Both the position numbers and the translations under genes were made by a program. The notes under the pieces were generated by a model. The model was not told where the DNA came from. It made no database searches and was given only the letters and a program-made list of their open reading frames with translations. This document shows, in pieces, positions 4,524-62,378 of a stretch of 64,000 nt of DNA. Location of the stretch: assembly GCA_963758525.1 (NCBI GenBank), contig CAVWVQ010000003.1:32001-96000 (forward strand), in the 5' to 3' direction. Source of the stretch: an uncultured Phycisphaerales bacterium (lineage in GTDB: Bacteria; Planctomycetota; Phycisphaerae; Tepidisphaerales; Tepidisphaeraceae). The first letter of the stretch is position 1. Every line of letters begins with the position of its first letter.

Positions 4524-4817
4524 GGTGATTGGTGCACGGAACGTGACAAGACGGGGGGAGGAGCAAACGTGAAGAGCGTCTCGGGCTCGCCGATGTTGCT
4601 CGGAGTCGCTTGCGTCGTCGCGGATGACAGATGAGCCTGTAAGGCCCGCGAAGGGCAAGCAACGCTCGACCCGTCGGCGAGCCCGATATCCTCCTCACGT
4701 TTCACGTTTTCACGTTTCATCCCCCCCTCTTGTCACGTTCCAATCACCAAATTCACGTTTCATCCCCCCTTTCTCACGTTCCAATCACCAGATTCACGTT
4801 CCAATCGTTCCAATCAC
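4524..4817. repeat. Nested inverted-repeat (MITE-like) element built from GTCACGTTCCAATCACC / TTTCACG units
   Basis: Left arm GGTGATTGG..GGAACGTGACAAGACGGGGGG..AAACGTGAA..TCGGGCTCGCCGA pairs with right arm TCGGCGAGCCCGA..TTTCACGTTT..CCCCCCTCTTGTCACGTTCCAATCACC. Extra CACGTTCCAATC copies extend to ~4817. Confidence 0.8.
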
Positions 4818-5731
4818 GATTCGACGTTCTTGGATCTATACGGCGTCATATCCATCCTCGGATACCGCCGGGCCACACCGGCGAGCGTCTCTTGATTCCA
4901 ATAGGGGTGACCCTGAGCGGGGAAACCGATCGCCTCTCGTTGTCGTGGCGTCGCCTGTTCCAGAAAGCGGCGCATCTCCGGCTTCTCCCCAAACCGCGAC
5001 CACTGGTTATATCCGGCAAAGGGAAAGCGTGCGCTGCGGTAAACCAGATGATGCGTAAACCGCACGCCATGCTCGGCAAGCATCTCCGACGCCCGATGGA
5101 ACGTACTCATGGAAAAAATCAGCAAGCCTCCGGCGTCGATCAGCACCTTCTTCTCACGCCGATAGAGTCCGGAATATTGTGTGCGCGGACGAAACGGCGG
5201 CCAAAGCTCGTCCGGCTTCCGCCCCGTTGGCACAACGCAGGTGGGCCCCATCGTGTCATCCACGTCAGTGTAATACAGAATCATGTTCACCTGGCGGAAC
5301 GGGCCGTCGTCGCGCGGATAAACGAGCGTGTTTCCCTCGAAATCCACGTGCATCGGCTGCTCGAAACTCCCCGTGCCAGCGTATTTCGCCCAGATGGCGG
5401 ATTGCGAAAGCATTATTTCGCGATCACCCAGAAGCGATTCGACAAATGAGATGATGCGCGGATGCGTCGCAATGTTGTTCAGGGCATCGCCAGCGTAGGG
5501 AAACTCTATCTGCTGATATTCCGCCTCCTCGAGAATAGCGCCATACCGCTGCGGCGCGGCCGCCAGTTCCTCCGGCGACGGAAAATATCGCAGCATATTG
5601 GCGCGAGCCGCCGCAATCTCGACCGGCATCAGAAACTTCGGAACAACCGTGTAACCCTGCCGTTTGAGTTGGGTTCGATGCTTCGCATCAATTTCGGGAT
5701 GAGGCGCCATGCGACGCGGTTTTCGCGTCAC
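4814..5731 (-). CDS. Phytanoyl-CoA dioxygenase (PhyH) family Fe(II)/2-oxoglutarate dioxygenase
   Basis: QGYTVVPKFL start, HxD motif (MHVD), GPTCVVP, GGLLIFSMSTFHRA distal His. Confidence 0.8.
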   Translation of the reverse strand: MTRKPRRMAPHPEIDAKHRTQLKRQGYTVVPKFLMPVEIAAARANMLRYFPSPEELAAAPQRYGAILEEAEYQQIEFPYAGDALNNIATHPRIISFVESLLGDREIMLSQSAIWAKYAGTGSFEQPMHVDFEGNTLVYPRDDGPFRQVNMILYYTDVDDTMGPTCVVPTGRKPDELWPPFRPRTQYSGLYRREKKVLIDAGGLLIFSMSTFHRASEMLAEHGVRFTHHLVYRSARFPFAGYNQWSRFGEKPEMRRFLEQATPRQREAIGFPAQGHPYWNQETLAGVARRYPRMDMTPYRSKNVES

Positions 5732-9151: not shown

Positions 9152-9180
9152 TTGACGCATTTTCTGCCAACCGATACGTT
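9152..9180 (+). promoter_or_regulatory. Sigma70-type promoter for tRNA-Ser
   Basis: TTGACG-N17-TACGTT, 14 nt upstream of the tRNA. Confidence 0.6.
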
Positions 9181-9194
9181 AGCATCACAACCCG

Positions 9195-9281: not shown

Positions 9282-9311
9282 ATTTTGCCGAAGGCAAATT
9301 GAGCAACTCCC

Positions 9312-9662: not shown

Positions 9663-9826
9663 CGCCAACTGGACGGTACACATGGCACGCACCTATATCT
9701 ATGAATCGGGCCGTGGCTATCCAAACCGCTCCCGTTTCGACGCGCACATCCCTCGTGCAAGGATCCGGTCCTGCCGAACAAATCGGCGCGCAGTGCGCGC
9801 ACCGGCAGGAGTCCACGTGGCGACTG

Positions 9827-10666: not shown

Positions 10667-10804
10667 CGGCTACTTCCCGAAGAACCTGCGCAATCCCGCC
10701 CCGATCCGCAGTGACCAAGAAACGCGGTACACGAATCGACACGAATTTCGCACGAATCTTCACGAAGCAGATTCGCCGAGCATCATGTTGATCACCGAGC
10801 GGTC

Positions 10805-11260: not shown

Positions 11261-11527
11261 TCGACGGGCATCGAACGCAGGATACAAAATCCTGGCAGTT
11301 TTTGCAGGCGAGCAATCGTCGTCATCGACCTTTCTCGCCTTTGGAGTGTCGTTTAAAAAAGGGCGCAGCACATAACGCTCGGCCATCCGTCTTCTTCTTG
11401 AATCGCTGGAAGATGGCGGTTTCGTGGCGGCCAGCGCCGATATGCCGGGCCTTGTCACCGAGGGCCGATTAAGCACCGGAACCGTTGAGATTGCACAAGG
11501 GCTGGCGCAAAATTACCAAATCGCGTT

Positions 11528-11619
11528 TTCCGGACCGAGGGTGCAAGCACCACTCGGCGTTCAAAATCGCTAAACGCTCTTCGCGAACGCCGAGCGGTGC
11601 TTGCACCCTCGGTCTGGAA
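11528..11619. repeat. REP-like inverted doublet downstream of the tRNA array
   Basis: 35-bp arms TTCCGGACCGAGGGTGCAAGCACCACTCGGCGTTC and GAACGCCGAGCGGTGCTTGCACCCTCGGTCTGGAA (2 mismatches), each internally palindromic. Confidence 0.8.
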
Positions 11620-11672
11620 GCTGTGTGCTGCCGACGCATGATCACTCTCGTCCCCATCCGCCGCTCCCGAAG

Positions 11673-11745
11673 CGCGCCGCGCAGGGATCGAACCTGCCGC
11701 TTCTCGATTTGGAATCGAGCGTTCCGCCATTGGAACTTGCGACGC
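11673..11745 (-). tRNA. tRNA-Trp(CCA), atypical (A8)
   Basis: Acceptor GCGTCGC/GCGGCGC, D-stem GTTC/GAAC, CTCGA-TTCCAAA-TCGAG, GCAGG-TTCGATC-CCTGC, G73. Confidence 0.8.
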
Positions 11746-11761
11746 GAGGTGAATGCGCTTG

Positions 11762-11845
11762 GAGTCCGGCGACAAGTCGCTCGGCTCTGCGCTGACGCGA
11801 CGAATGCGCCCCCTTGGTATAAGAGACATCGTCAACACCGGACTC
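11762..11845. repeat. REP-like element (GAGTCCGGCGACAAGTCGCTCGGCTCTGCGCTG) between tRNA genes
   Basis: Same unit as the doublet at 25798-25914; bracketed by GAGTCCGG...CCGGACTC. Confidence 0.75.
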
Positions 11846-11850
11846 TCTGA

Positions 11851-11936
11851 TGCGCAGGGAGGGATTTGAACCCCCGTAGGGTCGTGGACCCGTCGGTTTT
11901 ACGGACCGATGCGATTAGCCGCTCTGCCACCTGCGC
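11851..11936 (-). tRNA. tRNA-Tyr(GTA), atypical (C33)
   Basis: Acceptor GCGCAGG/CCTGCGC, TCGGT-CCGTAAA-ACCGA, long variable arm GGGTC..GACCC, GGTTCAAATCC, A73. Confidence 0.8.
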
Positions 11937-11974
11937 GAATTTCATTTTCTTGCTCCATCTCAAAACCGTCTCGA

Positions 11975-12047
11975 AGCCGCGTGCTGGAGTTGAACCAGCG
12001 ACCGGTCGCTTACGAGGCGACTGCTCTGCCAACTGAGCTACCGCGGC
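11975..12047 (-). tRNA. tRNA-Thr(CGT), G7-A66 mismatch
   Basis: GCCGCGG TA GCTCAGTTGGCAGAGC A GTCGC-CTCGTAA-GCGAC ... GCTGG-TTCAACT-CCAGC ACGCGGC. Confidence 0.85.
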
Positions 12048-12566
12048 GATGTTTTCAATTCACATGGGGGCTTGCTACGTTCAAACGCCAGCTTTTGCCA
12101 TGACGATTCTTCCGATGCTCCTTCCTGAAAACGGACTAACCGATGCGCAGACGCTCAGCCGGCATTTTGCCGTGCAGACGTTCATCCGCTTGGCGAAATA
12201 CAGAACGAACGCGCTTCAATGCGTCTAACTTCTTCCCAGTTTTATAGTAGTGATTACTGTTGACCGGGAAGAACTCCCGGCCGACACAGGCGAGGAGCTA
12301 CGAGCGCGTGGTGACGCCCAATGTCGTATACACGAATCGCCCTTCGGCGAACGTGTTACTTGTAGATGTATACCAATATTGCCGCATAGTTTTCTCCATC
12401 GACACAACGTGCCGAGTGAATGAATTATTCCATCGTGATTAGGGAATTGCAACTGCAAAATTGGAGAGAGAGATCGCACTGCCGCGGCGCCGTTGAAACG
12501 AACGAGCAGCCAGGACCGCGGTATATTCAATTGGCGGTTAGGGCTGTTCCTCGAACAAGGCGAGTC

Positions 12567-13388
12567 ATGATGAACCGATGTACATTTCTGACGGCGATGA
12601 TATTCGCATTTTGCGCGGCGCTCTCGACGGTTCGTGCCGAAGAGACTTCGGCAACGCAGCCCGAGGAGCCGGGACAGCATCCGGGAAGTTTCGAGGCGAC
12701 GATTACCTTCAAACTCAACTACCTGTTGTTTCTCCCTGAGGATTACTCGAAGGATCCGGAGAAGAAATGGCCGCTGATCGTTTTCCTGCATGGTTCGGGA
12801 GAGCGCGGCAATGACGTCAATATGGTCAAGGCGCACGGGCCGCCGAAGATTGTTGAGACGAAAAAGGATTTCCCGTTTGTGGTGCTCTCGCCGCAGTGCC
12901 CGCCGGATACGGGGTGGAAGCCGTTCGAGTTGAACGCGCTGCTCGATAAGATTCTGGCCAGCTATCGCGTGGATCCGGATCGCGTTTATCTCACCGGGCT
13001 GAGCATGGGGGGATTTGGCACGTGGGACTGGGCGTCGCAGAACGCGAATCGCTTTGCGGCGATCGCGCCGATGTGCGGCGGGGGAAACACCTCATTGGCG
13101 CGGCGACTGAAGAATCTGCCGATCTGGGTGTTTCATGGCGAAGCCGATCCTGTCGTCCCGATTGCGCGCAGCCAGGAGATGGTCGCGGCTTTGCAGAAGG
13201 TCGGCGCCGATGTGAAATTCACGCACTATCCCGGCGTCGGTCACAATTGCTGGACGCAATCGTACGACAATCCGGAGCTTTACACATGGTTCCTCTCGCA
13301 TCATCGCGGAGAAGTGAGAGTGCCCCAGACGCAGCAAGCGGCACAACCGCAAACGACGCAGCCCGAAACGCAACCCTCGCGGAACTGA
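12567..13388 (+). CDS. Secreted alpha/beta hydrolase (predicted peptidase/carboxylesterase)
   Basis: Signal peptide, WPLIVFLHGSGERG, GLSMGG nucleophile elbow, WVFHGEADPVV, GVGHNCW. Confidence 0.85.
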   Translation: MMNRCTFLTAMIFAFCAALSTVRAEETSATQPEEPGQHPGSFEATITFKLNYLLFLPEDYSKDPEKKWPLIVFLHGSGERGNDVNMVKAHGPPKIVETKKDFPFVVLSPQCPPDTGWKPFELNALLDKILASYRVDPDRVYLTGLSMGGFGTWDWASQNANRFAAIAPMCGGGNTSLARRLKNLPIWVFHGEADPVVPIARSQEMVAALQKVGADVKFTHYPGVGHNCWTQSYDNPELYTWFLSHHRGEVRVPQTQQAAQPQTTQPETQPSRN

Positions 13389-15022
13389 TCGGGCCGCGAT
13401 TTGTCTTGCGCTGGTCCGCGATCGCGATTCTCCTCTTCGGGCAAATCGCACGGGGTGAAGAGCCAGCGGATGTTGTGGTGTACGGGGGCACCAGCGCGGG
13501 CATCATCGCGGCGGTGCAAAGCGCCCGTATGGGCAAACATGTCACCCTGATCGAACCGGGGAAATACCTGGGCGGAATGACCGCCGGCGGTCTGGGCGCG
13601 ACCGATATGGGCAACGAAAAAGCAATCGGCGGCGTTGCCCGCGAGTTCTATCGGCGAGTGCTCGCATACTACCGGCAGCCTTCCGCATGGACCGGCGAGA
13701 CACTGGAGCAATACCAGAAGGGTGAGCATTATTTGCATGAAGATGCGCTTTTCGGCTTCGAGCCGCATGTCGCCGCGAAAATCTTCGGCGACATGCTTGG
13801 CGAGGCAAAGGTGACCGTGGTCCTCGGCCGAAGGCTCGATCGAAACCACGGCGTTCGGAAGGATGGGCCGCGCATCGTTTCCATCGCAATGGAGGACGGC
13901 AGCGTCTTCGTCGGCCAAATGTTCATTGATGCTACCTACGAAGGTGATCTGCTCGCGACAGCGGGCGTGTCTTACGCCATTGGACGCGAGGGCAACGCGC
14001 AATACGGCGAAACCTACGACGGCATTCAGACGGCTCAGGCACACGGACACCAATTCATGCTGCCAGTGGATCCGTTCGTGCAGCCGGGCAAACCCGAAAG
14101 CGGCCTGGTTCCTGGAATCCATCCCGGCGGCCCGGGAGTCGATGGAGAAGGCGATCGGCGCGTCCAGTCGTACAACTATCGCATCTGCATGACCAATGTT
14201 GCCGACAACCGCATTCCGTTTCCCAAGCCGGCCGGTTACGACGAAAGAAATTACGAATTGTTGCTCCGTTATTACGAAGCCGGCGCCAAGAGTGTGCCGT
14301 GGGGATCGCGGGGGATGCCGAATCACAAGACCGACTCGAACAATTCCGGCGCCTTCTCCACGGACGCGATTGGATTGGCCGATGCGTACCCTGAGGCTGA
14401 CTATCAAACCCGCGAGAAGATCGCGGCGCAGCACATCGACTACACCCAGGGGCTTCTCTGGACCGTCGCCAATCATCCGCGCGTGCCGGAGAAGATTCGA
14501 CGCGAAGCGAGCCAGTGGGGCCTGGCGAAAGATGAGTTCATCGATAACGACAACTGGCCCTGTCAACTCTATGTGCGCGAGGCGCGGCGAATGATCGGAG
14601 ACTACGTGATGACCCAGGCCGACATCACGCACCAGCGCAGCGCCGATGATCCGGTCGGACTGGGCTCTTACACTATGGATTCACACAACACACAGCGATA
14701 CGTGGACGCGGGCGGCCACGCCCGCAACGAGGGCGATGTGCAGATTCACGTGGCCAAGCCGTATTGCATCAGCTACCGCGCATTGACTCCCAAGGCCGCG
14801 GAATGCACGAATCTGCTGGCGCCCGTGTGCGTGAGCGCGACGCATATCGCCTACGGATCGATCCGAATGGAGCCGGTCTACATGATCCTTGGACAGGCGT
14901 GCGGAACGGCGGCTTCCATTGCGATCGACGAAAATGCCACTGTTCAAGGGATTCAATACGAGAAGTTGCGCGAAAGGTTGACGGCGGATCATCAGTTGAT
15001 CGCGTGGCCCGCGGGGCGCTGA
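13385..15022 (+). CDS. FAD-dependent oxidoreductase (secreted), start approximate
   Basis: DVVVYGGTSAGIIAAVQSAR, GGMTAGGLG, FIDATYEGDL, YVREARRMIG, SIRMEPVYMILGQACG. Confidence 0.85.
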   Translation: MIGPRFVLRWSAIAILLFGQIARGEEPADVVVYGGTSAGIIAAVQSARMGKHVTLIEPGKYLGGMTAGGLGATDMGNEKAIGGVAREFYRRVLAYYRQPSAWTGETLEQYQKGEHYLHEDALFGFEPHVAAKIFGDMLGEAKVTVVLGRRLDRNHGVRKDGPRIVSIAMEDGSVFVGQMFIDATYEGDLLATAGVSYAIGREGNAQYGETYDGIQTAQAHGHQFMLPVDPFVQPGKPESGLVPGIHPGGPGVDGEGDRRVQSYNYRICMTNVADNRIPFPKPAGYDERNYELLLRYYEAGAKSVPWGSRGMPNHKTDSNNSGAFSTDAIGLADAYPEADYQTREKIAAQHIDYTQGLLWTVANHPRVPEKIRREASQWGLAKDEFIDNDNWPCQLYVREARRMIGDYVMTQADITHQRSADDPVGLGSYTMDSHNTQRYVDAGGHARNEGDVQIHVAKPYCISYRALTPKAAECTNLLAPVCVSATHIAYGSIRMEPVYMILGQACGTAASIAIDENATVQGIQYEKLRERLTADHQLIAWPAGR

Positions 15023-15104
15023 AGCTCTTTCGAGCCGCCGCGCCTCCTGGGATTTCAAGCTCCGTAGGCATTCAAGAGCGACGGCGGCTTGGAACGTTTC
15101 ATTA

Positions 15105-15213
15105 CCCCCTCTCCCGGAACTCCGGGAGAGGGTTGCGGTGAGGGTGATTTTTGAGTACCGGTGGCGCCCGACGTTCGAGATCACCCTCACTGCGGGAGTA
15201 CCGGGAGAGGGGG
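15105..15213. repeat. Palindromic intergenic repeat (CCCTCTCCCGG..CGGGAGAGGG..GGTGAGGGTGA family)
   Basis: Close copies at 32756-32874, 59438-59564 and 60463-60580. Confidence 0.85.
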
Positions 15214-15261
15214 CAAGTCGCGCTCGAAGTTCTGAACCGGCTCTGAACTGCGTAACTTGGG

Positions 15262-17645
15262 TTAGCGCCGTTTGCGCCCCGCCGGCGCCTTGCGGCCGCC
15301 GCGCAGGGCGCCTTTTTGCCGCCGCCGCGAAGCGGCTGCTTCGCCTTGCCCCCCTTGAGCTTCTTCTTTCCTTCGGGCTCGACAGGAACGTCGGTGGTGG
15401 CGGCCGCACGCGCGCGACCAATGATCCTTTTGATGCTGAGATCCAGCTCGCGGCGCACGACGTCCACCCGCACGACCGCCACGTCGGCGACGTCGCCGAT
15501 GCCGATGCGCTGGCCCGTGCGCTGGCCGCGGACGACGCCGGCTTTTTCGTTCACATCCCACCAGTCGTCCATCAGGTTTTCGTAGCGGATCAGGCCGTCG
15601 ATGAGCCAGGTGGAAAGCTGGACGAAAACGCCGAAGTTGGTGATGCCCGTGACGACGCCGGGGAATTCTTCGCCGATCCGCTCCTTGAGCAGTTCGAGAA
15701 TCTTCACCTGCCGAAGCTCGCGCTCGGCGTCCTCGGCGCGGCGTTCGGTGAAGCTCAGTTGCTTGCCGAGCGCGACCAGATCGTCGTACGACGGCACGCT
15801 GTCTTCATCAACCTGCGGTTTGCCCTTCCCCGTCCGCTGGCGCGCTTCAAAGTAGGCATCGAGCAGACGATGAATCGTCAGATCGGCGTATCGCCGGATC
15901 GGGGAGGTGAAATGGCAGTATTGTTCGCTGGCGAGCGCATAGTGCCCGATCTGCTGCGGAGAATATTCCGCGCGGGTCAGACTTCGCAGCACCGCGATGT
16001 TAATGGCAAATCCTTCGGGCTTGCCGTGCGCCGCGAGGAGCAGGGCCTGGATCGCCTGGCGATCGAGCACCTTGGGAATCTTGAACCCCGCGACCGTCAC
16101 GAACTGGCGGAGACGATCTGAATCGCCCCCCTCCGGCTCGGGGTGAATGCGGCGCAGAAACGGGAGGTCCTGCGAATTGAGCAGCCGGGCGACGGCTTCG
16201 TTCGCCTCGACCATGAACATCTCAATCAGCGTGTGCGTGAAGCTCTGATCTTCCGGCACGGCGTCGGCGACCTTGCCATTCTCATCGAGCACCAGCTCGA
16301 CTTCCGGGAGATCGAGAACGATCTGTCCGTCGGCCAGACGTCGCTTCTGGAGACGGCGGGCCAGGACGTTCATCTGCCCCAGCAGCTCGATGATCCGAGG
16401 CTCATAATCGCCGACACGACGATCGCCGTCGGGATGCGGCACCACTTTGCCCAGATCGGGCCCGGCATTTCCGCCGGCGTCGATCGCGTCCAAAATCGCC
16501 TGCGCCTCACGATATCGCATCCGCTTGGCGCTGGTGATGATGGTGTTCGCGAACTTTGCGGAGACCGGCTTGGCGCCGCCGTCATAGGTGATGAACGCGC
16601 TCTTGCAGAAGCGCGGCACTTTTTCCTGCAGCGAGCAGACGCCGTTGCTGAGGATTTCCGGCAGCATCGGAATGACATGGCCGGGGAAATACGCGCTGTT
16701 GCCGCGCTTCCGCGCCTCTTCGTCCAGGGCGCTTCCCTCCGGCACAAAGTGCGAGACGTCGGCGATATGAACCCCAAGCTCCCAGCAGCCGTTGTCCAGC
16801 GCCCGCAGGCTGATGGCGTCGTCGTAGTCCTTCGCGTCGTCTGGATCGATCGTGCAGACGGTCTGGTCCGAGAGATCGATTCGACGGGACCGCTCGTCAT
16901 CAGGATTGAATCGATCGACCGACGCCCGCGCCTCGTCGAGAACGTCCTGCGGAAATTCGCCGGGCAGGTTGAACTGCACGATCACGCTCCGCAGATCGAC
17001 GTCTTTCTCTCCGGCTTCACCGAGCACTTCGGTGATCACGCCGACCGCGCGCTGGCCGTTGGCTGGATATTCGGTCATCTCCACGACGACCTTGGTTCCC
17101 GGCTGCACGTGCCGGCTCGCGGCATCGGGCGTGAGAATCGGCTCAGTGATGGAGTTGCCCTCCGGCAGCACCATCCATTGCGTTCCCTGACGCACCAGTT
17201 GTCCGACGAAGCGCTTCTGCGTGCGCTGCAAAATTTCGGTGATGCGACCACTGTAGATCGCCTTGCCGTCGCGGTGCCCCTTGCTCATGATCTTGGCGCG
17301 GACGATGTCCCCGGTGATCGCGCCGGAGTTCTGGCCTTCGGGGATGTACAGATCTTCCCGACTGCCCGGATCCGTCGGCACGACAAATCCGAATCCGCGT
17401 TTGTTGTGCCGATACGATCCGACAAACTCGTCGCGGCTGTGATGCTGGGCGGGAAGCACCACGGCTCCGCGCGCTCCCAGAACCACGTGTCCCCCGTGCA
17501 TAAGCTCCTTGAGCGCGTCACGGAAGGCGTGATACTGCTCTTCACCGTCCACGTTCAATTCGCGCGCTAACCCCCGGGCCCTCAGCGGGCGGTACTGCTC
17601 GCTCTTGAGGTGCTCAATAATCCGATTCTCTAACTGCTCTGCCAT
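15262..17645 (-). CDS. rnr: Ribonuclease R (probable C-terminal frameshift near 15306)
   Basis: HTH N-terminus, GFGFV cold-shock domain, TIDPDDAKDYDDAIS, GHYALA..YCHFTSPIRRYADL, S1 domain. The basic tail ends LRGGRKAPAGRKRR in an alternate frame. Confidence 0.95.
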
Positions 17646-17877
17646 AAACCTTTCAACCAAAAGACCGATTCCCCAGACGGCACATGCCGCCCGAAAATTT
17701 CCGGAAGCCGAATCAACGATAGGAACAGAAAACAGGTGTGTTCGCTAGGAAAACTGCGGGCTGCGGACAAGGAATCAATATCGTGATCGGCTGAAAACCT
17801 ACCGAAGGTAAGGAACAAAATCCGAACAACGACAGCAGGATAATACGAGATCGGGCTGGAATTGCAACTGCTGCAGG

Positions 17878-18135
17878 ATGACGTTGAGTCTGTCGATTTC
17901 GCCTGAGGTGGAAATGAAGCTGCGAGAAAAGGCTGCAGCTGCCGGTTTCGACCTGCCCACTTACGCAATCAAGACTCTTGAGCGGGTCGCATATCGTCCG
18001 ACGCTCGAGGAGGTGCTCGCCCCGCTACGCGAGGATTTTGATAGAAGCGGAATGAGCGAAGACGAACTGACGGCACTTCTTGAAACCGCAAAGCACGAAA
18101 TGCGAGCGGCACGTCGCGCGCGAAGTGCATCGTGA
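17878..18135 (+). CDS. Small putative antitoxin
   Basis: MTLSLSISPEVEMKLREKAAAAG (RHH-like start). Its stop overlaps (GTGA) a PIN toxin remnant. Confidence 0.65.
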   Translation: MTLSLSISPEVEMKLREKAAAAGFDLPTYAIKTLERVAYRPTLEEVLAPLREDFDRSGMSEDELTALLETAKHEMRAARRARSAS

Positions 18136-18306
18136 GATCCACCCCCTCGGCGGTATTTGATTGCAACGTTTATCTCAAGGTGATGCTGAGAACTCATGAG
18201 CGATGCGAACGCTGAGGGCAAGGAGCTTCGCCTGATCCACCCTGACTTCAAGGTGCTCACTCCGCCGCAGTTCCTGAACATGATCCGGCCACCCTTGTCA
18301 CCGTGA
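18132..18306 (+). pseudogene. PIN-domain toxin remnant with large internal deletion
   Basis: MRSTPSAVFDCNVYL (PIN N-terminal strand and Asp) joined out of frame to LMSDANAEGKELRLIHPDFKVLTPPQFL (typical PIN C-terminus); only 175 bp in total. Confidence 0.6.
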
Positions 18307-18460
18307 ATTTCGCAGCCGCGCGCCCGCATTTCCCCGCAATCTTCTGGATTTAAGGGCCGCCGTTCGCTAAAACTACCCTCATCGCAGCCTGGACGGTCGG
18401 GAATTTGGCGGCTGTTGTGCTGACGATTGGGCGTTCATTCATCCGATAAAGAGGCCAAGG

Positions 18461-19228
18461 ATGGCTAAACTCTTCGCTACATTTACGCTTGGTCTGATCG
18501 TCCTCGCCACTGGCTGCGAGGTGGCTCCGACCGTTTCCATGGTCGATCGACTCCCGGCGCCGTCGTTTGGCGGGCCGCCGAATCCGGACCTGGCGCCGAT
18601 TCCTGCGCCCGTGCCTCCGCCGGCGCCGGTCGCGGTGCTTCCGCATCGCAGCAATCGACCTGATCCAATTGCCAGCGCCGGGGTTCCGCGAAGCTGGATT
18701 CCAATCGCGGCCCCCAACGAATGGTATTGGATCGTCGTGCACCACAGCGCCACCGCTACCGGCGGTGCCGCCGCCTTTGACAAAATGCACCGAGCCAAGG
18801 GATGGGATGAGCTGGGGTATCACTTCGTGATCGGAAACGGGACCGATACGGGCGATGGCCAAGTTGAGGTCGGCTCGCGCTGGCCGAAGCAGAAGTGGGG
18901 CGCGCATGCGAAGACGCCTGACAACCGCTACAACGAACACGGCATCGGTATCTGCCTGGTCGGCAACTTCGATATCACTCGCCCCACCGCAAAGCAAATG
19001 GCGTCACTGGAACGCCTGGTGTCGTATCTGATGAAGACGTACCACATTCCGGCGGATCACATTCTGGGCCATCGCGATACCAAGAGCACGGATTGTCCGG
19101 GGCATAATATGAATGTCGCCGCGGTGCGGTCTGCGTGTGTGCGGATGCTGGCCCAGGCGGGTGAGGCAGTGCCGGAAGAGAACCGAACGGCGACTGCGGA
19201 GCTGATGGTCGATTCGCCGACGCGATGA
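18461..19228 (+). CDS. N-acetylmuramoyl-L-alanine amidase (Amidase_2/PGRP-like) lipoprotein
   Basis: Lipobox LATGC, IVVHHSAT, LGYHFVIGNG, GAHA, GIGICLVGNF, GHRD..TDCPG. Confidence 0.9.
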   Translation: MAKLFATFTLGLIVLATGCEVAPTVSMVDRLPAPSFGGPPNPDLAPIPAPVPPPAPVAVLPHRSNRPDPIASAGVPRSWIPIAAPNEWYWIVVHHSATATGGAAAFDKMHRAKGWDELGYHFVIGNGTDTGDGQVEVGSRWPKQKWGAHAKTPDNRYNEHGIGICLVGNFDITRPTAKQMASLERLVSYLMKTYHIPADHILGHRDTKSTDCPGHNMNVAAVRSACVRMLAQAGEAVPEENRTATAELMVDSPTR

Positions 19229-19351
19229 TCGGGCGTTTTTGACGCTCCGCGAAGGGGCAAGCCACGGCGATGCCGATTGGTGAATTGCGGCATTCTCCTT
19301 TGGCGTCAGTCGTTCCGTGCTCGGAAGATCCTCGGCGATCTCGTATCGATG

Positions 19352-19429
19352 TTGTCACGTTTCACGTCTTCAAGTACCGATCTTCGCTGCTCCCGTCACG
19401 TTCCAATCACCAATCACCAAAGATCACCA
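19352..19429. repeat. Solo arm of the GTCACGTTCCAATCACCAATCACC repeat
   Basis: Exact 24-mer at 19395-19418, identical to the arm at 54732-54755. Confidence 0.85.
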
Positions 19430-19436
19430 GTCCCAT

Positions 19437-19464
19437 TTGACACTTTCTCTTCACCCCGCATAAT
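19437..19464 (+). promoter_or_regulatory. Sigma70-type promoter of atpG (probably leaderless)
   Basis: TTGACA-N16-CATAAT, ending 8 nt before ATG 19473. Confidence 0.6.
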
Positions 19465-19472
19465 CCCGCGAT

Positions 19473-20378
19473 ATGGCTAAGGCTCGCGCTATTGTGAAAC
19501 GCCGCAAGGCGGTTCGGAACATCCGCAAGATCACCAAGACGATGCAGATGATCGCGACGGCCAAGTTCCAAAAGTCGCTGAAACGAGCGGTTGGAACCAA
19601 GCCTTACAGCCTGAAGGTGCGCGAACTGGTGAAGGAGCTGGCGGCAAGCGTCGGAGACGTGGACCATCCGCTGCTCCGTCGTCCGAGCGATGCCGATCGC
19701 AAGAAGAAGATCGCACTGGTCGTCATCACCAGCAATCGGGGGCTGGCGGGCGCCTACAACGGGAGCGTGCTTCGGGCGGCGAACGTATTCATCCGACAGC
19801 AGACCGCCGAGGGAAATGCGATCGATCTCTACGTTGCCGGGAAAAAGGGTATCTCGTTCTTCAATTTCCAGAAACGCCCGATCGCGCAGCGCATCGAAGT
19901 CGCCGATCCAGTGCAGTTTGCCGACGTGGAAGTCCTGGCGAATCAGTTCATCGAACAGTTCGTCTCGGGCCAGGTCGACGCGGTTTACGTCGCGTACATG
20001 AACTTTTTGAGCGCGTCCAACCAGAAGCCCGACGTGATGTCGCTGCTGCCGTTGGCTGGTGTTGAGGCGCCCGCGGCGGCCGGGCAGACGGCGCCGTCGG
20101 CCGGCCTCGCGAAGCAAGTGGTCTACGAGTTCTCGCCCGACCCGATCAGTCTGTTGGATGATCTGCTCCCGCGCACTGTTCGCACGGCTCTCTTTCAGGC
20201 ATTCCTCGATGCGACCACCAGCGAGCATGTCGCCCGCATGATCTCGATGAAAAGCGCCACCGATAATGCCGACAAGATGGTCAAATCGTTGACCATGCGA
20301 TACAACCGCGCCCGACAGAGCCAGATCACCACTGAGCTATCGGAAATCATGGGCGGCGTAGAGGCGATGAACAAGTAG
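19473..20378 (+). CDS. atpG: F1F0 ATP synthase gamma subunit
   Basis: KITKTMQMIATAK, ITSNRGLAGAYN, SEHVARMISMKSATDNA, YNRARQSQITTELSEIMGG. Confidence 0.97.
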   Translation: MAKARAIVKRRKAVRNIRKITKTMQMIATAKFQKSLKRAVGTKPYSLKVRELVKELAASVGDVDHPLLRRPSDADRKKKIALVVITSNRGLAGAYNGSVLRAANVFIRQQTAEGNAIDLYVAGKKGISFFNFQKRPIAQRIEVADPVQFADVEVLANQFIEQFVSGQVDAVYVAYMNFLSASNQKPDVMSLLPLAGVEAPAAAGQTAPSAGLAKQVVYEFSPDPISLLDDLLPRTVRTALFQAFLDATTSEHVARMISMKSATDNADKMVKSLTMRYNRARQSQITTELSEIMGGVEAMNK

Positions 20379-20390
20379 GCCGCCAGGGCC

Positions 20391-20650
20391 GCCACTTCGG
20401 GCGGAAATCCGAATTCCGAAACCCGAAACCAGAATTAAACCAGAATGACGAATGACCGAATGTTGCGCCGAGAGCCGCAGCTCATGTCGTTGGTCTGATG
20501 GCAGGTGCGAGCTAGCTAGCTCGTGGGGATGGGATCACAGAACTCCGTTTCAGTCATTCGTCATTCGGGTTTCGGGTTTGATTCTGGTTTCTGGTTTCGG
20601 AATTCGGATTTCTGCCCGAAGTGGCAGTTCTGGTTTCGGAATTCGGGTTT
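20391..20650. repeat. Inverted pair of heptamer-repeat arms (GAAACCC/GAAACCA/GAATGAC family)
   Basis: GCCACTTCGGGCGGAAATCCGAATTCCGAAACCCGAAACCAGAAT..GAATGACGAATGAC pairs with GTCATTCGTCATTC..TTCTGGTTTCGGAATTCGGATTTCTGCCCGAAGTGGC. Confidence 0.85.
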
Positions 20651-39606: not shown

Positions 39607-39703
39607 CTTCCCGCTCCTGACTCCTGGCTCCCGCTTCTGACTCCTGGCTCCTGGCTCCTGACTCCTGGCTCCCGCTTCTGACTCCTGGCTCCTGGCTCCC
39701 GCC
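39607..39703. repeat. Heptamer tandem array (CTCCTGG/CTCCTGA/CTCCCGC)
   Basis: About 13 degenerate 7-nt units with a higher-order repetition of CTCCTGGCTCCCGCTTCTGACTCCTGG. Confidence 0.85.
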
Positions 39704-43554: not shown

Positions 43555-43762
43555 AAACCCGAATGACGAAACCAGAAACCAGAATCAAAGAATCAAATCC
43601 GAAACCCGAATGACGAATGTCGAAGCTCAGTTCGTGCAACACGCGCTCGGAACATTAATACGATCGAAGTGCCAAGTCGCACGAGTTATCCTCTTCATTT
43701 GGTCATTCGTCATTCTGGTTTGATTCGTTTTGATTCGGGGATTCTGGTTTCGTCATTCGGGT
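43555..43762. repeat. Inverted pair of heptamer-repeat arms (GAAACCC/GAATGAC family)
   Basis: GAAACCCGAATGACGAAACCAGAAACCAGAATCAAA.. pairs with ..GTCATTCGTCATTCTGGTTTGATTC..TTCTGGTTTCGTCATTCGGGTT. Confidence 0.8.
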
Positions 43763-49895: not shown

Positions 49896-50062
49896 ACGAA
49901 ACCCGAAACCAGAATGAAATAATGAAATCCGAATGGCGAATGACCGAATGTCGAAACGAACCCTGCGGCCGCCGACAGGAGTTCTTCCCCTTTGTCCCTC
50001 TTAGTCCTAACCCTTCGTGCCTCCGTGCCTTCGTGCCTCCGTGCCTTCCTCGGGTGCCTTCC
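49896..50062. repeat. Heptamer arm (GAAACCC/GAATGAC) followed by an octamer array (TTCGTGCC)
   Basis: GAAACCCGAAACCAGAATGAAAT..GAATGACCGAATG; CCTTCGTGCCTCCGTGCCTTCGTGCCTCCGTGCC. Similar octamers at ~48960-49025. Confidence 0.75.
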
Positions 50063-50989: not shown

Positions 50990-52125
50990 TTATTGGTAAT
51001 CGAGCGTCCCGGCTTTATCGGGTTCCGGCCCATCGCCCGGGCGCTCGAGCCGGCCGTTGCGAAGCACCAGCACGCGATCCGCCTTGCTGGCGACGCTGCG
51101 GTCGTGAGTGACCATGACAATCGTCTGCCGCTGCTCGCGATGCAGGCGTTCGAGCACCGCCATGATCTGCCCGCCGGTTTCAACATCGAGATTGCCGGTC
51201 GGCTCATCCGCGAAGAGAACGCGCGGGTTGTTCATCAGCGCCCTCGCGATCGCAACCCGCTGGCGCTCGCCGCCGGAGAGTTCGCTAGGCTTGTGCTTCA
51301 GGCGCTCGGCAAGCCCTACTTCCGTCAGGACCTCGGTCGCCCGCGCCTTCAGCGCCGGCTTGTCCCGAAGATACCGCAGCCAGGAGCGCTCGACCATCGC
51401 GGGCATCAGCGCGTTCTCAAGTACATTCAACTCCGGCAGCAGATGATAAAACTGAAAGACGAACCCAAACGAGTTGGTTCGCAGTTCGCAGACGGGTCGT
51501 TCCGCAATATAGCCGGCAATCGCCAGGTAGATTGCAAATACAACAGGCGGCGCCACTTCGATTGCTGTCCGGAGCCACCACGTCACATTCGCCGCTTCCA
51601 GGCACCACTCCGCCCCTGCAAAGACCCACGCGGCAGCAATCAGCAGCAGCATTCGCTCCGATTTCTTGAACAGCGCCACTGCCACCCAAATCAGGGTGAT
51701 CACCGGCAGCGAGATTCGCACAATCGGGACGAGCGGGATCAGTGCCATTGCGCTCATGATGGATACTGCAACAATAGCCTCGATCCACATGCGAACTCGA
51801 AGCGGAATAGCCAAAAGCCCTCGAAACGGCGTGGGATACAGCCACCCTTTGGGGTTGGCGGCATATCGTGCTCCCTCGAATTCCAGCGTTCCTGCATCGG
51901 GCACATCAAGACCGCCCATGATGTGCAGCAGAGTGCTCTTGCCGGAGCCGGATTTTCCTTCGATCGCGACGAACTCCCCTTCCCGCAGCGTCAGGTCGAC
52001 AAGTTTGAGAATCTGCAGCACGTCGCGGCCGGTTTCGTAAGTTTTTTTCAATCCCTTGTGCGCAGAATCGTCGGCCGCTCCGACCGGGAGGATTGCACCG
52101 CTGTTTGAGAGACCACTTGCGACAT
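50990..52125 (-). CDS. lolD: LolD-type ABC ATPase with a large hydrophobic insertion (start frameshift near 52056)
   Basis: GKSGSGKST, GFVFQFYHLLPELNVLEN, LSGGERQRVAIARAL, ADEPTGNLD, VTHD; follows lolC/E. Confidence 0.88.
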
Positions 52126-52344: not shown

Positions 52345-54132
52345 TTACTCCCACCGCAGCGATTCCACGGGATTTTTTCGCCCTGCCGCGATCGCCGGAA
52401 TCAACGCGCCCAGCACGCTGGCCAGGATCGCGATCGGCACAATCCATTTAATGTCGGTCGCGCTCATCTGGTTGGGAATCTTGTCGAACAGATACACCTC
52501 CGGATTCCAGATCTGCACGTGAAACTGCCGGCCCAGCCATGCGTGCATTTCGTTGATGTAATGCACGATGAGATAGCTGACCAGCAGGCCCAATCCGCTG
52601 CCGATGAGCCCGATGGTCAAGCCGTACCACAGGAAAATGCCGGCGACGCCCGCCGAGCTGGCGCCGACGCTCTTGATGATGCCGATATCCCGCGTCTTCT
52701 CCAGCACGATCATGTAGAAGATGCAGAAGATCAGGAAGATCGCCACGATGCTGATGACGCCAAACAGCATCACCGTCAGCATCTTCTCGTTCTCGATCGC
52801 ATTGATCCAAACCGCCTGGCTCTCCAGCCACGTCTCGACGTACGGATGGCCGGTTCCGGTGATGTTTGTCCCCTCGTGCGACAGTTCCACCGCGTCGACT
52901 TGCTTCTCAATCTCGTCGCGCGCGACGGCCAGCGACGCGTCGTCGGTGAATCCGGGCTTCATGCGGACATGAATTTCCGTCGTTCGCGCGGGAATTTTGA
53001 TCTTCTCCCCCGTGTCCAATGTCGCGTCCTGCGCATTCATCCCCAAATCCGACTGGAGCTGAGCGAACGACACGTAAACGTAGTTGTTGTCGTATTGCCA
53101 GATTTGCGTTCGGCTGTCGTCCACGAGCCAGTAATTTCGCTCGGACCGGTTGTTGATATCCGGGCTCGACTCCCCGGGATGAAATCCCAGCACCGTCAGC
53201 TTCAGCGGTCGGCCATAAATCCCCGGATCGTCCGGCAACGGCAGCCGCGGCCCAAGCGGCGACCCCCACGTCCCCGTCTTGTCGCGCTGAATCCCGATCA
53301 CGCCGATGCCGACGATCATCCCCGGCCATTTCGTGACATCCTGCCGCGTGCGCGGCACCAGCGACTGGTAATCGATCACCTCCCCGCTGTTGGAAATCGC
53401 GAAGAGCTGGTCGACTGCCTGCTTGAACTGCGCATCCTGCGACAATCCCCGCAGCAGCAGCCGATCCTCCGGCCCCATGATCCCCTTGAACATCAGCTTC
53501 CCCGCCTGCGGATCAAACCAGAATCGCGACGCCAGGCTTTCGGGGAGATTTGCCTTTCCCACTGAACCTTGAACCCTGAACTCTGAACCCTCCTTCGCGA
53601 GCCGAACATCGCCCGGCATATTTTTAAGCGGCACGCCGCACCGATCCAGCAGATCGAACGACGCGGGCTGCTTCAGTTGTTCCTGGAGCTGCGCCCGCAG
53701 CTCGGGCGAGAGCTTCGGGTCGGCCAGCATCTCTTCGAGGTTGGTGTGCTGCCGAAACAGCGAATCCGGAAACCGGTTCACATTTCCGATCTGCTCGATG
53801 GGAATGCCGATCACCTTCACCGCCGCCGTCGGGTATGGCCCGACATTCAGCAGACCAAACGTCTCGATGCTGGGGACCGCCGCCGCCACGCCCGGCACCT
53901 GCAGGATCTTGTCCATCATCTCCTGATAATACGGGAATCCCGTCAGCGAAGAGCTGCGCACGATGATGTCGCCGGTGAGTCCGTGGAACGACTGCTTGAA
54001 CATGTTGAGCCACCCGCCCATGACGCTGATGACCACCAGCACCATGGTGGTGCAAAGCATCACCGCCGCGAGGGAAACCCAGGCGATTCGGCGCTTGAGG
54101 AGGTATTTGAGGATGAGGAGGAGTTTGTACAT
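52345..54132 (-). CDS. LolC/E-type lipoprotein-releasing ABC permease with an enlarged periplasmic domain
   Basis: VVISVMGG, MIVLEKTRDIGIIKSVGAS, IWNPEVYLFDKIP, PAIAAGRKNPVESLRWE; lysS-lolC/E-lolD order. Confidence 0.88.
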   Translation of the reverse strand: MYKLLLILKYLLKRRIAWVSLAAVMLCTTMVLVVISVMGGWLNMFKQSFHGLTGDIIVRSSSLTGFPYYQEMMDKILQVPGVAAAVPSIETFGLLNVGPYPTAAVKVIGIPIEQIGNVNRFPDSLFRQHTNLEEMLADPKLSPELRAQLQEQLKQPASFDLLDRCGVPLKNMPGDVRLAKEGSEFRVQGSVGKANLPESLASRFWFDPQAGKLMFKGIMGPEDRLLLRGLSQDAQFKQAVDQLFAISNSGEVIDYQSLVPRTRQDVTKWPGMIVGIGVIGIQRDKTGTWGSPLGPRLPLPDDPGIYGRPLKLTVLGFHPGESSPDINNRSERNYWLVDDSRTQIWQYDNNYVYVSFAQLQSDLGMNAQDATLDTGEKIKIPARTTEIHVRMKPGFTDDASLAVARDEIEKQVDAVELSHEGTNITGTGHPYVETWLESQAVWINAIENEKMLTVMLFGVISIVAIFLIFCIFYMIVLEKTRDIGIIKSVGASSAGVAGIFLWYGLTIGLIGSGLGLLVSYLIVHYINEMHAWLGRQFHVQIWNPEVYLFDKIPNQMSATDIKWIVPIAILASVLGALIPAIAAGRKNPVESLRWE

Positions 54133-54138
54133 GGAGCA

Positions 54139-54162
54139 GGTGATTGGTGATTGGAACGTGAC
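54139..54162. repeat. Left 24-bp inverted repeat of the four-helix-bundle cassette
   Basis: GGTGATTGGTGATTGGAACGTGAC, the exact reverse complement of 54732-54755. Confidence 0.9.
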
Positions 54163-54685
54163 TCAGAACTTGCCGTCTGCGGATGCTTCGGCCGAGCGTT
54201 CATTTGGCAGCTGTTGCCTCCGCGGGTCCGCTGATTGGTGAGTGGAACATGGCAAAGCGTCTGCGTTCGGTGCGTCGTTCAGTTGAATATTCTTCCGTCG
54301 CTCGTTGGCAGCCATACGGATCAACAACTTTGCCAATTGCGTCATGATTCCGATCCTATGGGCGGTTACTTTGGAGCCCAGCACGGCTCGTGCCTTGAAA
54401 TACCAGTCCCGAGTTTCGCGCGGAGCCGAGTGCGTACTCATAAAACCTCGCGCGGTCGCGTCCACTCCCGCGTGAGTAGCCTTCCGCGACGTTTGAACTA
54501 ATGTTGCCTGCTGCGCGACATAATTGGTCGGCGGTGGACTTGGCGCGGGCGTCGCGCATTAGCTTCGCGCCGTCATTCCAAGCCAGATCAGACGCAAACA
54601 GTCCAAGTCGGTACGCCTCCATCTTCCAAACAGAGTCACCTCGAATCTCCTCCGGAACCTGCTTCTCCCAGTCATCAAATGTCAC
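54163..54685 (-). CDS. Four helix bundle protein (TIGR02436 / 23S rRNA IVS protein / Avd-like), frameshift near 54420
   Basis: WKMEAYRL, ADQLCRAAGNISSNVAEGYSRGSGRDRARFYEYALGSA then RETRDWY. Confidence 0.85.
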
Positions 54686-54690
54686 GGCAT

Positions 54691-54755
54691 CCCCGTCTTG
54701 TCAGGTTCCACGTTCCAATCACCAGCGCCTTGTCACGTTCCAATCACCAATCACC
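54691..54755. repeat. Right inverted-repeat arm of the four-helix-bundle cassette
   Basis: CCCCGTCTTGTCAGGTTCCACGTTCCAATCACCA and GTCACGTTCCAATCACCAATCACC (54732-55). Overlaps the lysS stop codon. Confidence 0.9.
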
Positions 54756-56241
54756 CTGACGTCAAACGGGTCGGCGATTCCATCGGCCGCATCAAAGGAA
54801 ACAGAAGCACATCCCGTATGCTCTCCGCGCCCGTCAGCATCATCACCAGCCGGTCGATTCCCATTCCCATGCCGCCTGCGGGGGGCATTCCATATCGTAG
54901 GGCGGTCAGGAAGTCTTCGTCGGTCTTTTGCTTCTCGGCATCGTCGCCAACCTGATGCGCGAAGTTTGCCGCTTGAACGTCCGGATCGTTCAACTCACTG
55001 TAGCCAGGGGAGATCTCCGAGCCGTTGATCGCAAGTTCGTAGACGTCCGCGAAGAAGGGATCGGCGGCGTTTTTCCTGGCAAGCGGAATGATCACCGACG
55101 GAAAATGCGTGACGAAGCACGGGTCGATCAACGTCGGCTCGACGAGTTTCTCATACACCTCCACAAGCTGCTCTGCTGGCGACTTCCCGCGCAGGGCAAG
55201 CTGCTTGCCACCGATGTCCGACTCCCGGAGGTCGCCGAGTTCGATCGTCTTCTTCTGAAATTTCCACCCCGTCTTCTCTTCGACAAGCTCCGCCAGGCGG
55301 ACACGCCGCCAGGGGCGCTGGAGATTGATGGCTTTCCCTTCGCGATGGGCGATCTGCAGCCCGCCGACCAGCTTCTCAGCCACGGAGCAGATCATCCCCT
55401 CGACCAGGTCGGCCATGGTTTCCCATGATCCGAACGCCTCATACGCTTCGAGCATGGTGAACTCGGGATTGTGCCGCGGGCTGATTCCTTCGTTGCGGAA
55501 GTTGCGGTTCAGCTCAAATACCTTGCTGAAGCCGCCGACGAGGAGGCGCTTGAGATAGAGTTCCGGCGCGATCCGCATGTAGAGCGGGATGTCGAGCGCA
55601 TTGTGATGCGTGACAAACGGCCGAGCCGCGGCGCCGCCCGCCAGCGGCTGCATCATCGGCGTTTCGACCTCGAGATACCCCTGCTCCTTCATATATTGCC
55701 GGATCGCGTCGACGATCTGCACCCGCAGCTTGAGCACGCGCATTACCTCCGGATTGGCCCAGAGATCGACATACCTTTGCCGATACCGCAGTTCCACATC
55801 CGACAGCCCCTCCCACTTCGCGGGAGGCGGAAGCAACGCCTTCGACGCCATCGTCACCGATGTCGCCCAGATCGTGATCTCGCCTTTGTTTGTCGAGCCC
55901 AACGGCCCTTCAACGACGATCAGATCGCCAAGATCGATCAAATCGCGCACGCCCCACGCTTTTTCGTCCACTCGTCGTTTGTCGATCGCGATCTGCAGGT
56001 CGCCGGTCTCGTCGCGGAGGGTGAGAAAGCTAAGCTTCCCCATGTCGCGCTTGAGCATGACCCGCCCCGCCGCTTTCACCACGGGTCCGGCGTCGTGCCC
56101 CATCGCCGGCTCAAACGATCCCTTGATTTGCGCCAACGGCTGCAGTCCTTCGGTCCGCGTCCCGTACGGATCGACGCCCAGCTCGCGCAGCTTGGCTAGT
56201 TTCTCCCGTCGAATTTGTTCCTGATCGCCTGAGTCGCTCAT
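54751..56241 (-). CDS. lysS: Lysyl-tRNA synthetase (class II)
   Basis: RYRQRYVDL, EVETPMM..GGAAARPF.THHN, RIAPELYLKRL, FRNEG, YGMPPAGGMGMGIDRL. Confidence 0.98.
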   Translation of the reverse strand: MSDSGDQEQIRREKLAKLRELGVDPYGTRTEGLQPLAQIKGSFEPAMGHDAGPVVKAAGRVMLKRDMGKLSFLTLRDETGDLQIAIDKRRVDEKAWGVRDLIDLGDLIVVEGPLGSTNKGEITIWATSVTMASKALLPPPAKWEGLSDVELRYRQRYVDLWANPEVMRVLKLRVQIVDAIRQYMKEQGYLEVETPMMQPLAGGAAARPFVTHHNALDIPLYMRIAPELYLKRLLVGGFSKVFELNRNFRNEGISPRHNPEFTMLEAYEAFGSWETMADLVEGMICSVAEKLVGGLQIAHREGKAINLQRPWRRVRLAELVEEKTGWKFQKKTIELGDLRESDIGGKQLALRGKSPAEQLVEVYEKLVEPTLIDPCFVTHFPSVIIPLARKNAADPFFADVYELAINGSEISPGYSELNDPDVQAANFAHQVGDDAEKQKTDEDFLTALRYGMPPAGGMGMGIDRLVMMLTGAESIRDVLLFPLMRPMESPTRLTSG

Positions 56242-61317: not shown

Positions 61318-62193
61318 GTGACGGTTGTCAAAACAATCGCGGAGTGCCGGGCGGAACGATGGAAACTGGGGAAACTCGCCCTGGTCCCGACGATGGGGGC
61401 GCTGCACGCGGGGCACGTCTCGCTGATCGACTTGGCGCACGAGCACGACGCGGCAGTCGCGGTCAGCATCTTTGTCAATCCGACACAATTTGGGCCGCGG
61501 GAGGATTACAACCGGTATCCTCGGCCGATCGAGCAGGACCTCGCGAAGTGCGAAGCGGCAAAAGTGGATTTTGTCTTTCTGCCAGACGCGGAGGAAATGT
61601 ATCGGCCGGGATTGGCGGACATTGTCGTCGATCTGCCGCAACTCACCAGCGTTCTGGAAGGAAAACATCGCCCCGGACATTTCCGCGGTGTCTGCCAGGT
61701 AGTGGCAAAGCTCTTCAACATCACCCGGCCTGACTTTGCGGTCTTCGGGCAGAAAGATTTTCAGCAGCTTCGCGTAATTACCGCGATGGTCGAATCTCTC
61801 GATTGGCCGATCGAGATTGTTTCCGCGCCAACGCTCCGCGATCCCGACGGCATGGCCATCAGCAGCCGCAATCAATATCTGACGGCTGATGATCGCCGGC
61901 GCGGCCTGGCGATCAGCAAAGCGCTCTTCGCCGCCCAGGCCGAGTTCGACCGGGGCATCAATCAGACGAACCGTCTGTTGACGACGATGCAAAGGATTCT
62001 GCTCGAGCCGCACCTGCACATCGACTACATCGCCGCCGTCGATGCGCGGACCCTGAAGACGGTTGACGTCGTGCTGGAGCCGACAGTGCTCGCGCTGGCC
62101 GCTCGCGTGAATAACACCCGGCTGATCGACAATGTGGTGTTGGGAGAAGGCACGAAGGCACCAAGGCACGAAGGCACGAAGGGAAGGAACTAA
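61318..62193 (+). CDS. panC: Pantoate--beta-alanine ligase
   Basis: VPTMGALHAGH, SIFVNPTQF, RPGHFRGV, FGQKDFQQ, GMAISSRN, TRLIDN. Confidence 0.96.
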   Translation: MTVVKTIAECRAERWKLGKLALVPTMGALHAGHVSLIDLAHEHDAAVAVSIFVNPTQFGPREDYNRYPRPIEQDLAKCEAAKVDFVFLPDAEEMYRPGLADIVVDLPQLTSVLEGKHRPGHFRGVCQVVAKLFNITRPDFAVFGQKDFQQLRVITAMVESLDWPIEIVSAPTLRDPDGMAISSRNQYLTADDRRRGLAISKALFAAQAEFDRGINQTNRLLTTMQRILLEPHLHIDYIAAVDARTLKTVDVVLEPTVLALAARVNNTRLIDNVVLGEGTKAPRHEGTKGRN

Positions 62194-62378
62194 ACGACAT
62201 GGCGCGGCACCAACATGCCTTTCCTGTCTCCCTCTCCATCCCTACAATTCACCAAGCCATGAGGGATTCACAAATGACGACGTTTAAGAGATTTGTTCAC
62301 GCTTCACGTTTTCACGTTTCACGTCTTCACGTTTCCACTCCCTCACTTCGTGCCTTCGTCCCTTCGTCCCTTCGTCCC
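62149..62378. repeat. Inverted octamer arrays (GGCACGAA x4 / TTCGT[GC]CC x4) enclosing TTTCACG heptamers
   Basis: 62149-62180 and 62347-62378; TTCACG(T) units at ~62295-62335. Confidence 0.8.

Follow-up and report, generated by a model that had tools for sequence, protein, structure and literature searches.

A four-helix-bundle gene between inverted heptamer-array arms at the lysS-lolC/E junction of a Phycisphaerales bacterium, and its gene-less satellite arrays

The window, a stretch of 64,000 nucleotides from the genome of an uncultured Phycisphaerales bacterium (here G000, compared with 30 relatives including the unpublished G004), contains a small cassette between lysS and a gene for a lolC/E-like permease of 595 aa (Table 1). 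Among named relatives, Tepidisphaeraceae genomes are the closest, and the host is likely a planctomycete from this family. An earlier note on this DNA had described the gene at this site as bracketed by an exact 24-bp inverted repeat. The repeat is present at 54139-54162 and 54732-54755, and with up to 3 mismatches allowed the window contains the 24-mer 4 times, compared with 0 in 100 shuffles. The coordinates also agree with the note's account of the junctions: the TGA of lysS, at 54751-54753, is part of the 5' arm, and 6 nt separate the end of the 3' arm from the lolC/E ATG at 54132. The four-helix-bundle ORF is the sole ORF between the arms; as the note had stated, no transposase is found there. 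The cassette is located at a junction of host genes and not in an rRNA helix, and the only Rfam matches in the window are 4 tRNAs. Both lolC/E and the neighboring lolD give their best profile scores to those families, yet remain under the curated cut-offs. The lolD-like ATPase (window 50990-52051) carries a mostly hydrophobic insertion of ~110 residues within its ABC domain.

Table 1. Coordinates in the window of the cassette, its host genes and related gene-less arrays.
Feature	Position	Strand	Remarks
lysS, upstream host gene	54751..56241	-	profile match
Outer 5' arm, purine-rich	54732..54755	-	exact genome-wide 24-mer, includes lysS stop codon
Inner 5' arm	54700..54723	-	1 mismatch from second arm variant
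PF05635/TIGR02436 four-helix-bundle gene	54163..54685	-	GTG start; 174 aa if frame open
Inner 3' arm, decayed (4 mismatches)	54230..54253	-	within the ORF's C-terminal tail
Outer 3' arm, pyrimidine-rich	54139..54162	-	exact 24-mer, immediately after ORF stop
lolC/E-like permease, downstream host gene	52345..54132	-	profile match below curated cut-off
Solo arm, gene-less, exact	19395..19418	.	preceded by short TCACGTT array
Hairpin element, gene-less	4524..4820	.	one 5' arm and three 3' arms, with TCACGTT arrays inside
Array of TCACGTT, the subfamily's ancestral heptamer, gene-less	62296..62335	.	-

The arms are nested. The arm variant closest to the inner 5' arm has 10 exact copies in the genome, and in the close homologues P0001, P0004 and P0006 an arm is translated at the position of the inner 3' arm. 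The inner pair is likely older than the exact outer pair, and a decayed pair nested in an exact one is consistent with new arms having been added more than once on the outside. Because both outer arms are copies of a genome-wide family, their perfect match alone is no proof of selection for pairing. A 24-bp RNA stem closing around the ORF appears in both the minimum-energy and the centroid predicted folds (whole-region z = -1.66), and to that extent the modelled RNA is consistent with the note's proposal that the arms pair in the mRNA and loop out the gene.

As assembled, the cassette ORF is split into two frames near position 54416. A soil-metagenome contig of 151 nt (depth 2.5) matches 54369-54517 without substitutions and differs only in two extra bases near 54416, which open the frame; homologues of the gene likewise have an uninterrupted frame. 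Given the extra bases and the intact homologues, an assembly error is the likeliest cause of the frameshift, although it may instead be a strain-specific mutation, as the evidence for an open frame in this sequence comes from one low-depth contig that is perhaps from a near strain. Programmed frameshifting is not favored, a frame shorter than 110 aa being found in only 3 of 155 parsed loci, the window's included. By eye, three other genes of the family in G000 (C5:136237, C3:4532839 and C2:13691) also look frameshifted or broken; counting the window's, this applies to 4 of its 8 family genes and may reflect indel errors of the assembly. Two further indel differences in the soil runs did not clearly show assembly errors.

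To our knowledge, PF05635, a family that is very common in bacteria and has structures solved, has no known function. The N-terminal frame alone scores 40 bits against PF05635 (cut-off 33.8) and 42.6 bits against TIGR02436 (cut-off 24), which places the protein in the IVS/Avd-like four-helix-bundle family named in the note. A structure model was built for the homologue P0002, which is 84% identical over the matched part (pLDDT 91.5). By sequence, P0002 finds only a weak match to 2GSC among solved structures (E 0.056), and its model best matches BT_0352 (2RLD) and Xcc0516 (2GSC), with rmsd values of 1.7-2.2 A; the Foldseek match to Avd is weak (TM 0.63 by target length), and the structural matches reveal neither a catalytic activity nor a nuclease or polymerase fold. 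Xcc0516 is described as a homopentamer (PMC4990558), and Avd as a positively charged pentameric barrel needed together with the reverse transcriptase for cDNA synthesis in diversity-generating retroelements (DGRs) (PMC6182149); PF05635 is regarded as an Avd homologue in PMC10053308. By analogy, the cassette protein likely forms a ring, probably a pentamer. Proteins of its subfamily are net positive (median +4). The TRAP ring is a protein that wraps a periodic single strand. A comparable ring around a single strand would suit arrays that combine a fixed core with variable positions.

The arm belongs to a repeat family that is widespread in G000, with 46 exact copies of the 24-mer and 64 within 2 mismatches; a search with its 22-base core gives 66 matches in G000, compared with 0 in the 30 relatives. 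Copies are located outside called genes in 61 of 64 cases, using a custom caller whose genes cover 77% of the genome, and none of the 62 sites away from the cassette holds a gene remnant. The copies form 57 clusters, comprising 40 single arms, 2 same-direction doubles and 15 clusters with inverted pairs. In all 15 paired clusters the order runs from purine to pyrimidine arm, the spacers differ and inner TCACGTT arrays are frequent in them. No target duplication was seen by eye in the 12-nt flanks of these 15 elements, whose ends are not fixed by an empty allele. In 21 of 61 arrays the purine arm begins no more than 15 nt past the stop codon of a called gene, compared with 1 of 61 in the opposite orientation and 2.5% of random intergenic positions. 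Eight of these are at exactly 4 nt, the upstream genes range from 96 to 954 aa, and the base before the stop is G in 15 of the 21 (36% genome-wide). A stop triplet 4 nt upstream is also present in 5 of the other 40 arrays, and the closeness to stops could be linked to translation or reflect a preference for GTGA-like sequence. Near start codons the pyrimidine arm shows a weak excess only (17 versus 6 of 64 within 60 nt; 3 versus 0 of 59 for called starts), and a crude ORF-based orientation count gives sense neighbors at 59 and 54 of 60 and passing antisense ORFs at 43 and 19.

Two such gene-less sites in the window had been pointed out earlier, and both are real. The solo arm at 19395-19418 is an exact copy, 54 nt upstream of an ORF that we take from its translation to be ATP synthase gamma-like; a full cassette precedes ATP synthase gamma at the Poribacteria locus L076 (compare window 19395-19473, with the solo arm before its gene). 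The empty pair at 4524-4750 folds into a single hairpin (z = -8.3); its 5' arm (4524-4547) has 3 mismatches to the 24-mer, and further arms reach to about 4820. A contig of soil run X1 shows the exact 24-mer where the assembly has this 3-mismatch arm (window 4535-4537), reflecting either an assembly error or conversion of one arm. Contigs from three soil runs, with thin coverage over 3500-20500, contained no joint skipping an arm and yielded no pair of empty and filled alleles from close strains. The gene-less arms at window 43559-43747 and 39644-39685 belong to two other four-helix-bundle cassettes of G000.

The note had called for a search for flanking inverted arms on other members of the family, and such arms are common. 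For the subfamily of the cassette protein, 159 fetched loci together with L026 and the window yielded 155 parsed loci; requiring full unique flanks reduced these to 134, and a limit of less than 90% protein identity to 100. Inverted arms (score of at least 12) were found at 83 of these 100 loci. Far-flank controls gave 0 of 58, arms in direct orientation were found at 11 of 100, and the best period was 7 at 92 loci. Upstream flanks contain at least two TYACKYH words in the expected orientation in 80 cases and downstream flanks in 77, compared with 3 and 5 for the other orientation. Mismatched arm pairs within the subfamily also score (42%), and a gene's own arm is best in only 16 cases, because the TYACKYH word is common to the whole subfamily. 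The hosts belong to the Chloroflexota, Verrucomicrobiota, Poribacteria, Rhodothermota, Acidobacteriota and Planctomycetota, and the downstream ORFs to which Pfam families could be assigned (38 of 53) span 23 different families. In the wider family, 97 of 113 matches in G000 and its 30 relatives were used, leaving 90 after coverage and flank filters; 68 of the 90 have arms, with the purine-rich arm upstream in 54. There, mismatched pairs pass in 2.2% of cases and the own arm is best in 60.

The word also co-varies with the protein clade, as the note had asked to have checked: it is common to the nearest protein neighbor in 24 of 75 cases (mean 2.3 and maximum 9 in 2000 shuffles), on a quick tree in which kin are non-independent and some pairs may be same-site orthologues. 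Sharing falls from 62% of pairs at 60-70% identity to at most 4% of pairs under 40%. G000 itself has 8 family genes, all different, one of them from the subfamily. The arms of 5 of the 8 contain 14-mers that recur 35-233 times in the genome, and those of the other 3 have no satellites. Gene and arms are a real unit, and it is nearly certain that the satellites belong to it as well.

A cassette's own spelling can be followed between genomes. That of G031 is matched 22 times in its own genome, and G000 contains no exact match to it; those of G008, G062 and G103 have 14 (7 of them overlapping in one array), 22 and 15 matches at home, and each has 0 in four other genomes. By this own-spelling test the satellites are genome-specific in four of six relatives. 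The G034 spelling has 4 matches only, the same as its reversed control, and the ancestral-type spelling of G032 is not genome-specific, being present in G000 and G031 as well. Six of 15 gene-less G031 sites have a syntenic counterpart in G000, and the motif is present in 0 of these 6, some with gaps of much different size. The subfamily gene occurs in 5 of 101 genomes of the class. At least 10 TYACGYH arrays are found in 3 of the 101, all gene carriers; the two remaining carriers use other spellings, and the 96 non-carriers have at most 5 arrays, the highest being G083, which holds a truncated cassette. Reversing the pattern does not give a control for chance in this count, since some genomes contain the reversed form as a repeat in its own right.

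The site between lysS and lolC has a long history. A lysS match was found in 29 relatives with lolC adjacent in 22, and 21 of these 22 (including G004, on which no conclusion rests by itself) lack the cassette gene, so that the empty junction the note had proposed to look for is the common state among them. The exception, G008, has a cassette gene with a different word. Cassettes at this junction were found in 11 fetched loci and in the genomes G034, G062 and G083, the last being truncated. Twelve same-site copies form one branch of the tree (support 86), where shuffles give a mean of 11.6 changes. The arms of 9 of the 11 other copies score at least 16, four pairs being perfect with differing sequences, and L026 and L220 score 11 and 6. 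Compared with L147, whose gene has a premature stop, the window gene shows a dN of 0.09 and a dS of about 3, and dS is saturated against six others. Such substitution rates indicate strong purifying selection on the lysS-lolC protein. Together, a single clade of 12 copies, saturated dS and low dN suggest one old insertion followed by vertical inheritance and repeated loss. The sequence comparisons thus point to an old insertion that has been selected in some lines and has decayed or been lost in others; it is not a recent jump. The word at lysS-lolC has drifted, that of G062 being typical of another clade, which implies that the specificity of protein for word is loose. Of the note's picture of an autonomous cassette with non-autonomous derivatives, the gene-less and lineage-specific copies hold up, and current hopping does not, given 8 different family genes in G000 and one old clade at the shared site. 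In relatives, the lysS downstream junction also carries small ORF pairs that look toxin-antitoxin-like by eye (L015, L018, L021 and L028) and gene-less inverted heptamer pairs of other words (L032 and L037), and it looks like an insertion hot spot.

Several known systems resemble the cassette in part. The ORF-bearing intervening sequences (IVSs) of 23S rRNA in Coxiella and Leptospira (S23p; PMC4990558) share with it a PF05635/TIGR02436 protein, complementary ends that close the ORF in a predicted stem, and a patchy distribution. Unlike them, the cassette sits between protein-coding genes, its arms are heptamer arrays with dozens of gene-less copies, and its protein is under purifying selection and not decaying. 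REPIN-RAYT systems (Bertels and Rainey 2011, PMC3116915) resemble it in that a gene present once, and passed on mostly vertically, is accompanied by repeats of its own, that a genome has several distinct gene-repeat pairs, and that the repeats occur between genes as inverted doublets and singlets with variable spacers. The cassette protein is a four-helix bundle and not a Y1 HUH tyrosine transposase, and its arms are non-palindromic purine/pyrimidine heptamer arrays with a polarity fixed relative to transcription. Lacking a transposase, the cassette does not belong with the insertion sequences or MITEs, and it differs from a DGR in having neither a reverse transcriptase nor a template/variable repeat pair, the cassette protein being related in fold to Avd and matching 2RLD and 2GSC far better.

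Heptamer repeats are known, yet unexplained, in many bacterial genomes; the STRR and SDR elements of cyanobacteria are intergenic 7-base arrays, often in inverted pairs, and are not known to be linked to transposases. The GGGAATC and GGGGA(C/T)T heptamers of Xanthomonas and Nostoc are described in similar terms in PMC4692102, that is, as intergenic, often as inverted pairs and with no transposase link; in the portion of that paper dealing with them they are tied to no gene family, whereas the arms described here are tied to a protein clade. PMC8700078, in the part that concerns the family, merely lists its genes. No link between the PF05635 family and heptamer arms is found among the literature matches listed, which cover subscription papers thinly and main texts without supplements. 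G000 contains further repeat families. Arrays of 9-base repeats flank GxxExxY-type nuclease genes (G000:C3:275451-275798 and three other PF13366 loci, L227-L230) and are in inverted orientation at C3:275451, with 9-mer sites in the window at 49010, 50017-50033 and 62148-62164. Related 9-mers form a family of 182 arrays genome-wide, with the same bias for a purine arm after a stop (30 versus 0). These nuclease genes and their 9-base arrays are a parallel gene-plus-repeat system. Window positions 28881 and 52145 belong to a REP family of the classical GTAG type, which numbers about 300 copies in the genome; there are also 23 Y1/RAYT-like matches.

The best reading of the cassette is a gene-plus-satellite system of the REPIN-RAYT kind, related to the ORF-bearing rRNA intervening sequences. 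As to how it works, we give about even chances to a scheme in which the protein binds its own arms and, with a host enzyme, steers templated short-patch copying of arms to the gene ends, the arms forming a stem of the RNase III type. The ring would bind its own arms, with their 7-base period, as single-stranded RNA or DNA; RNase III would cut the arm stem, as in rRNA intervening sequences; an arm would be copied by templated copy-and-overwrite, leaving no target duplication, much as in Avd-assisted DGR homing, and with the help of the host enzyme would be written to the gene ends; and the whole cassette would on rare occasions be transferred to other operon junctions and other phyla. This proposal is weakest at the copying enzyme. 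G000 has 6 RVT_1, 23 Y1/RAYT-like and 4 PDDEXK_3 matches, with the RVT_1 and Y1_Tnp matches located away from the cassette, and in 2 of 5 relatives, which are draft genomes, no reverse transcriptase match was found, including G062 with its 22 satellites. Loci L291-L296 of the reverse transcriptase set comprise four near-identical, group II intron-like genes and two others.

The Y1/RAYT-like or reverse transcriptase proteins of G000 could move repeats without the cassette protein, and the arms might then be REP/REPIN-like sequences moved by RAYT, the GxxExxY nuclease or a group II intron reverse transcriptase, with the gene as cargo. The presence of 23 Y1_Tnp, 6 RVT_1 and 4 PDDEXK_3 matches in the genome would allow this, the two arms are simply members of the genome-wide 24-mer family, and the other sites hold a gene remnant in 0 of 62 cases; it is nevertheless unlikely, as one heptamer word accompanies the subfamily over many phyla and neighborhoods, other protein clades have other words, and the array-rich genomes are those that carry the gene. 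Still less probable is present-day movement of the entire cassette as an autonomous element, by way of an RNA that is cut out and may be circular. There is no second cassette copy in G000, the same-site copies are one old clade, no target duplication is seen by eye at the 15 paired elements, and the excised RNA of the Coxiella IVS is reported to be quickly degraded, all of which speaks against an element of this kind despite the predicted stem closing the ORF, the spread of the subfamily over phyla, and the RNase III excision shown for that same IVS, whose protein is of the same family (PMC4990558).

The rival that comes closest, though still doubtful, is a domesticated post-transcriptional system in which the ring, bound to heptamer arrays at operon junctions, adjusts how mRNA is processed or translated, and in which ordinary recombination or gene conversion, and not the protein, spreads and homogenizes the arrays. 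It would account for strong purifying selection on a gene vertically resident at one site, for the polarity of the arrays and their closeness to stop codons, and for the net positive charge of the subfamily proteins (median +4), and ribosome stalling has been reported for REPs no more than 15 nt from a stop codon (PMC12306157). A regulator of this type is harder to reconcile with a cassette that is repeatedly lost and decayed, with unrelated neighbor genes, with several clades per genome each having its own word, and with satellite sites that are not conserved.

Returning to arm copying steered by the cassette protein, a broader version is possible and is put forward tentatively: PF05635 rings may be the specificity factors of a widespread, transposase-free form of copying, a free-living counterpart of Avd-type homing in which the ring of each clade would recognize that clade's heptamer word on RNA and guide the templated writing of arms at the gene ends. 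If true, this would explain what the 23S IVS protein family does, and also why 7-base repeats are, as has long been observed, in excess in bacteria. The link between gene and arms gives the PF05635 protein a candidate ligand that can be read from its own flanks, and the different words of different clades are natural swaps usable as controls. The puzzle posed by the RAYTs, a gene selected at one site of which only the satellites spread, is here repeated by an unrelated protein. If the protein does drive the copying, such cassettes would represent a type of small mobile DNA that does without its own transposase, and may provide a means of writing short templated patches into genomes.
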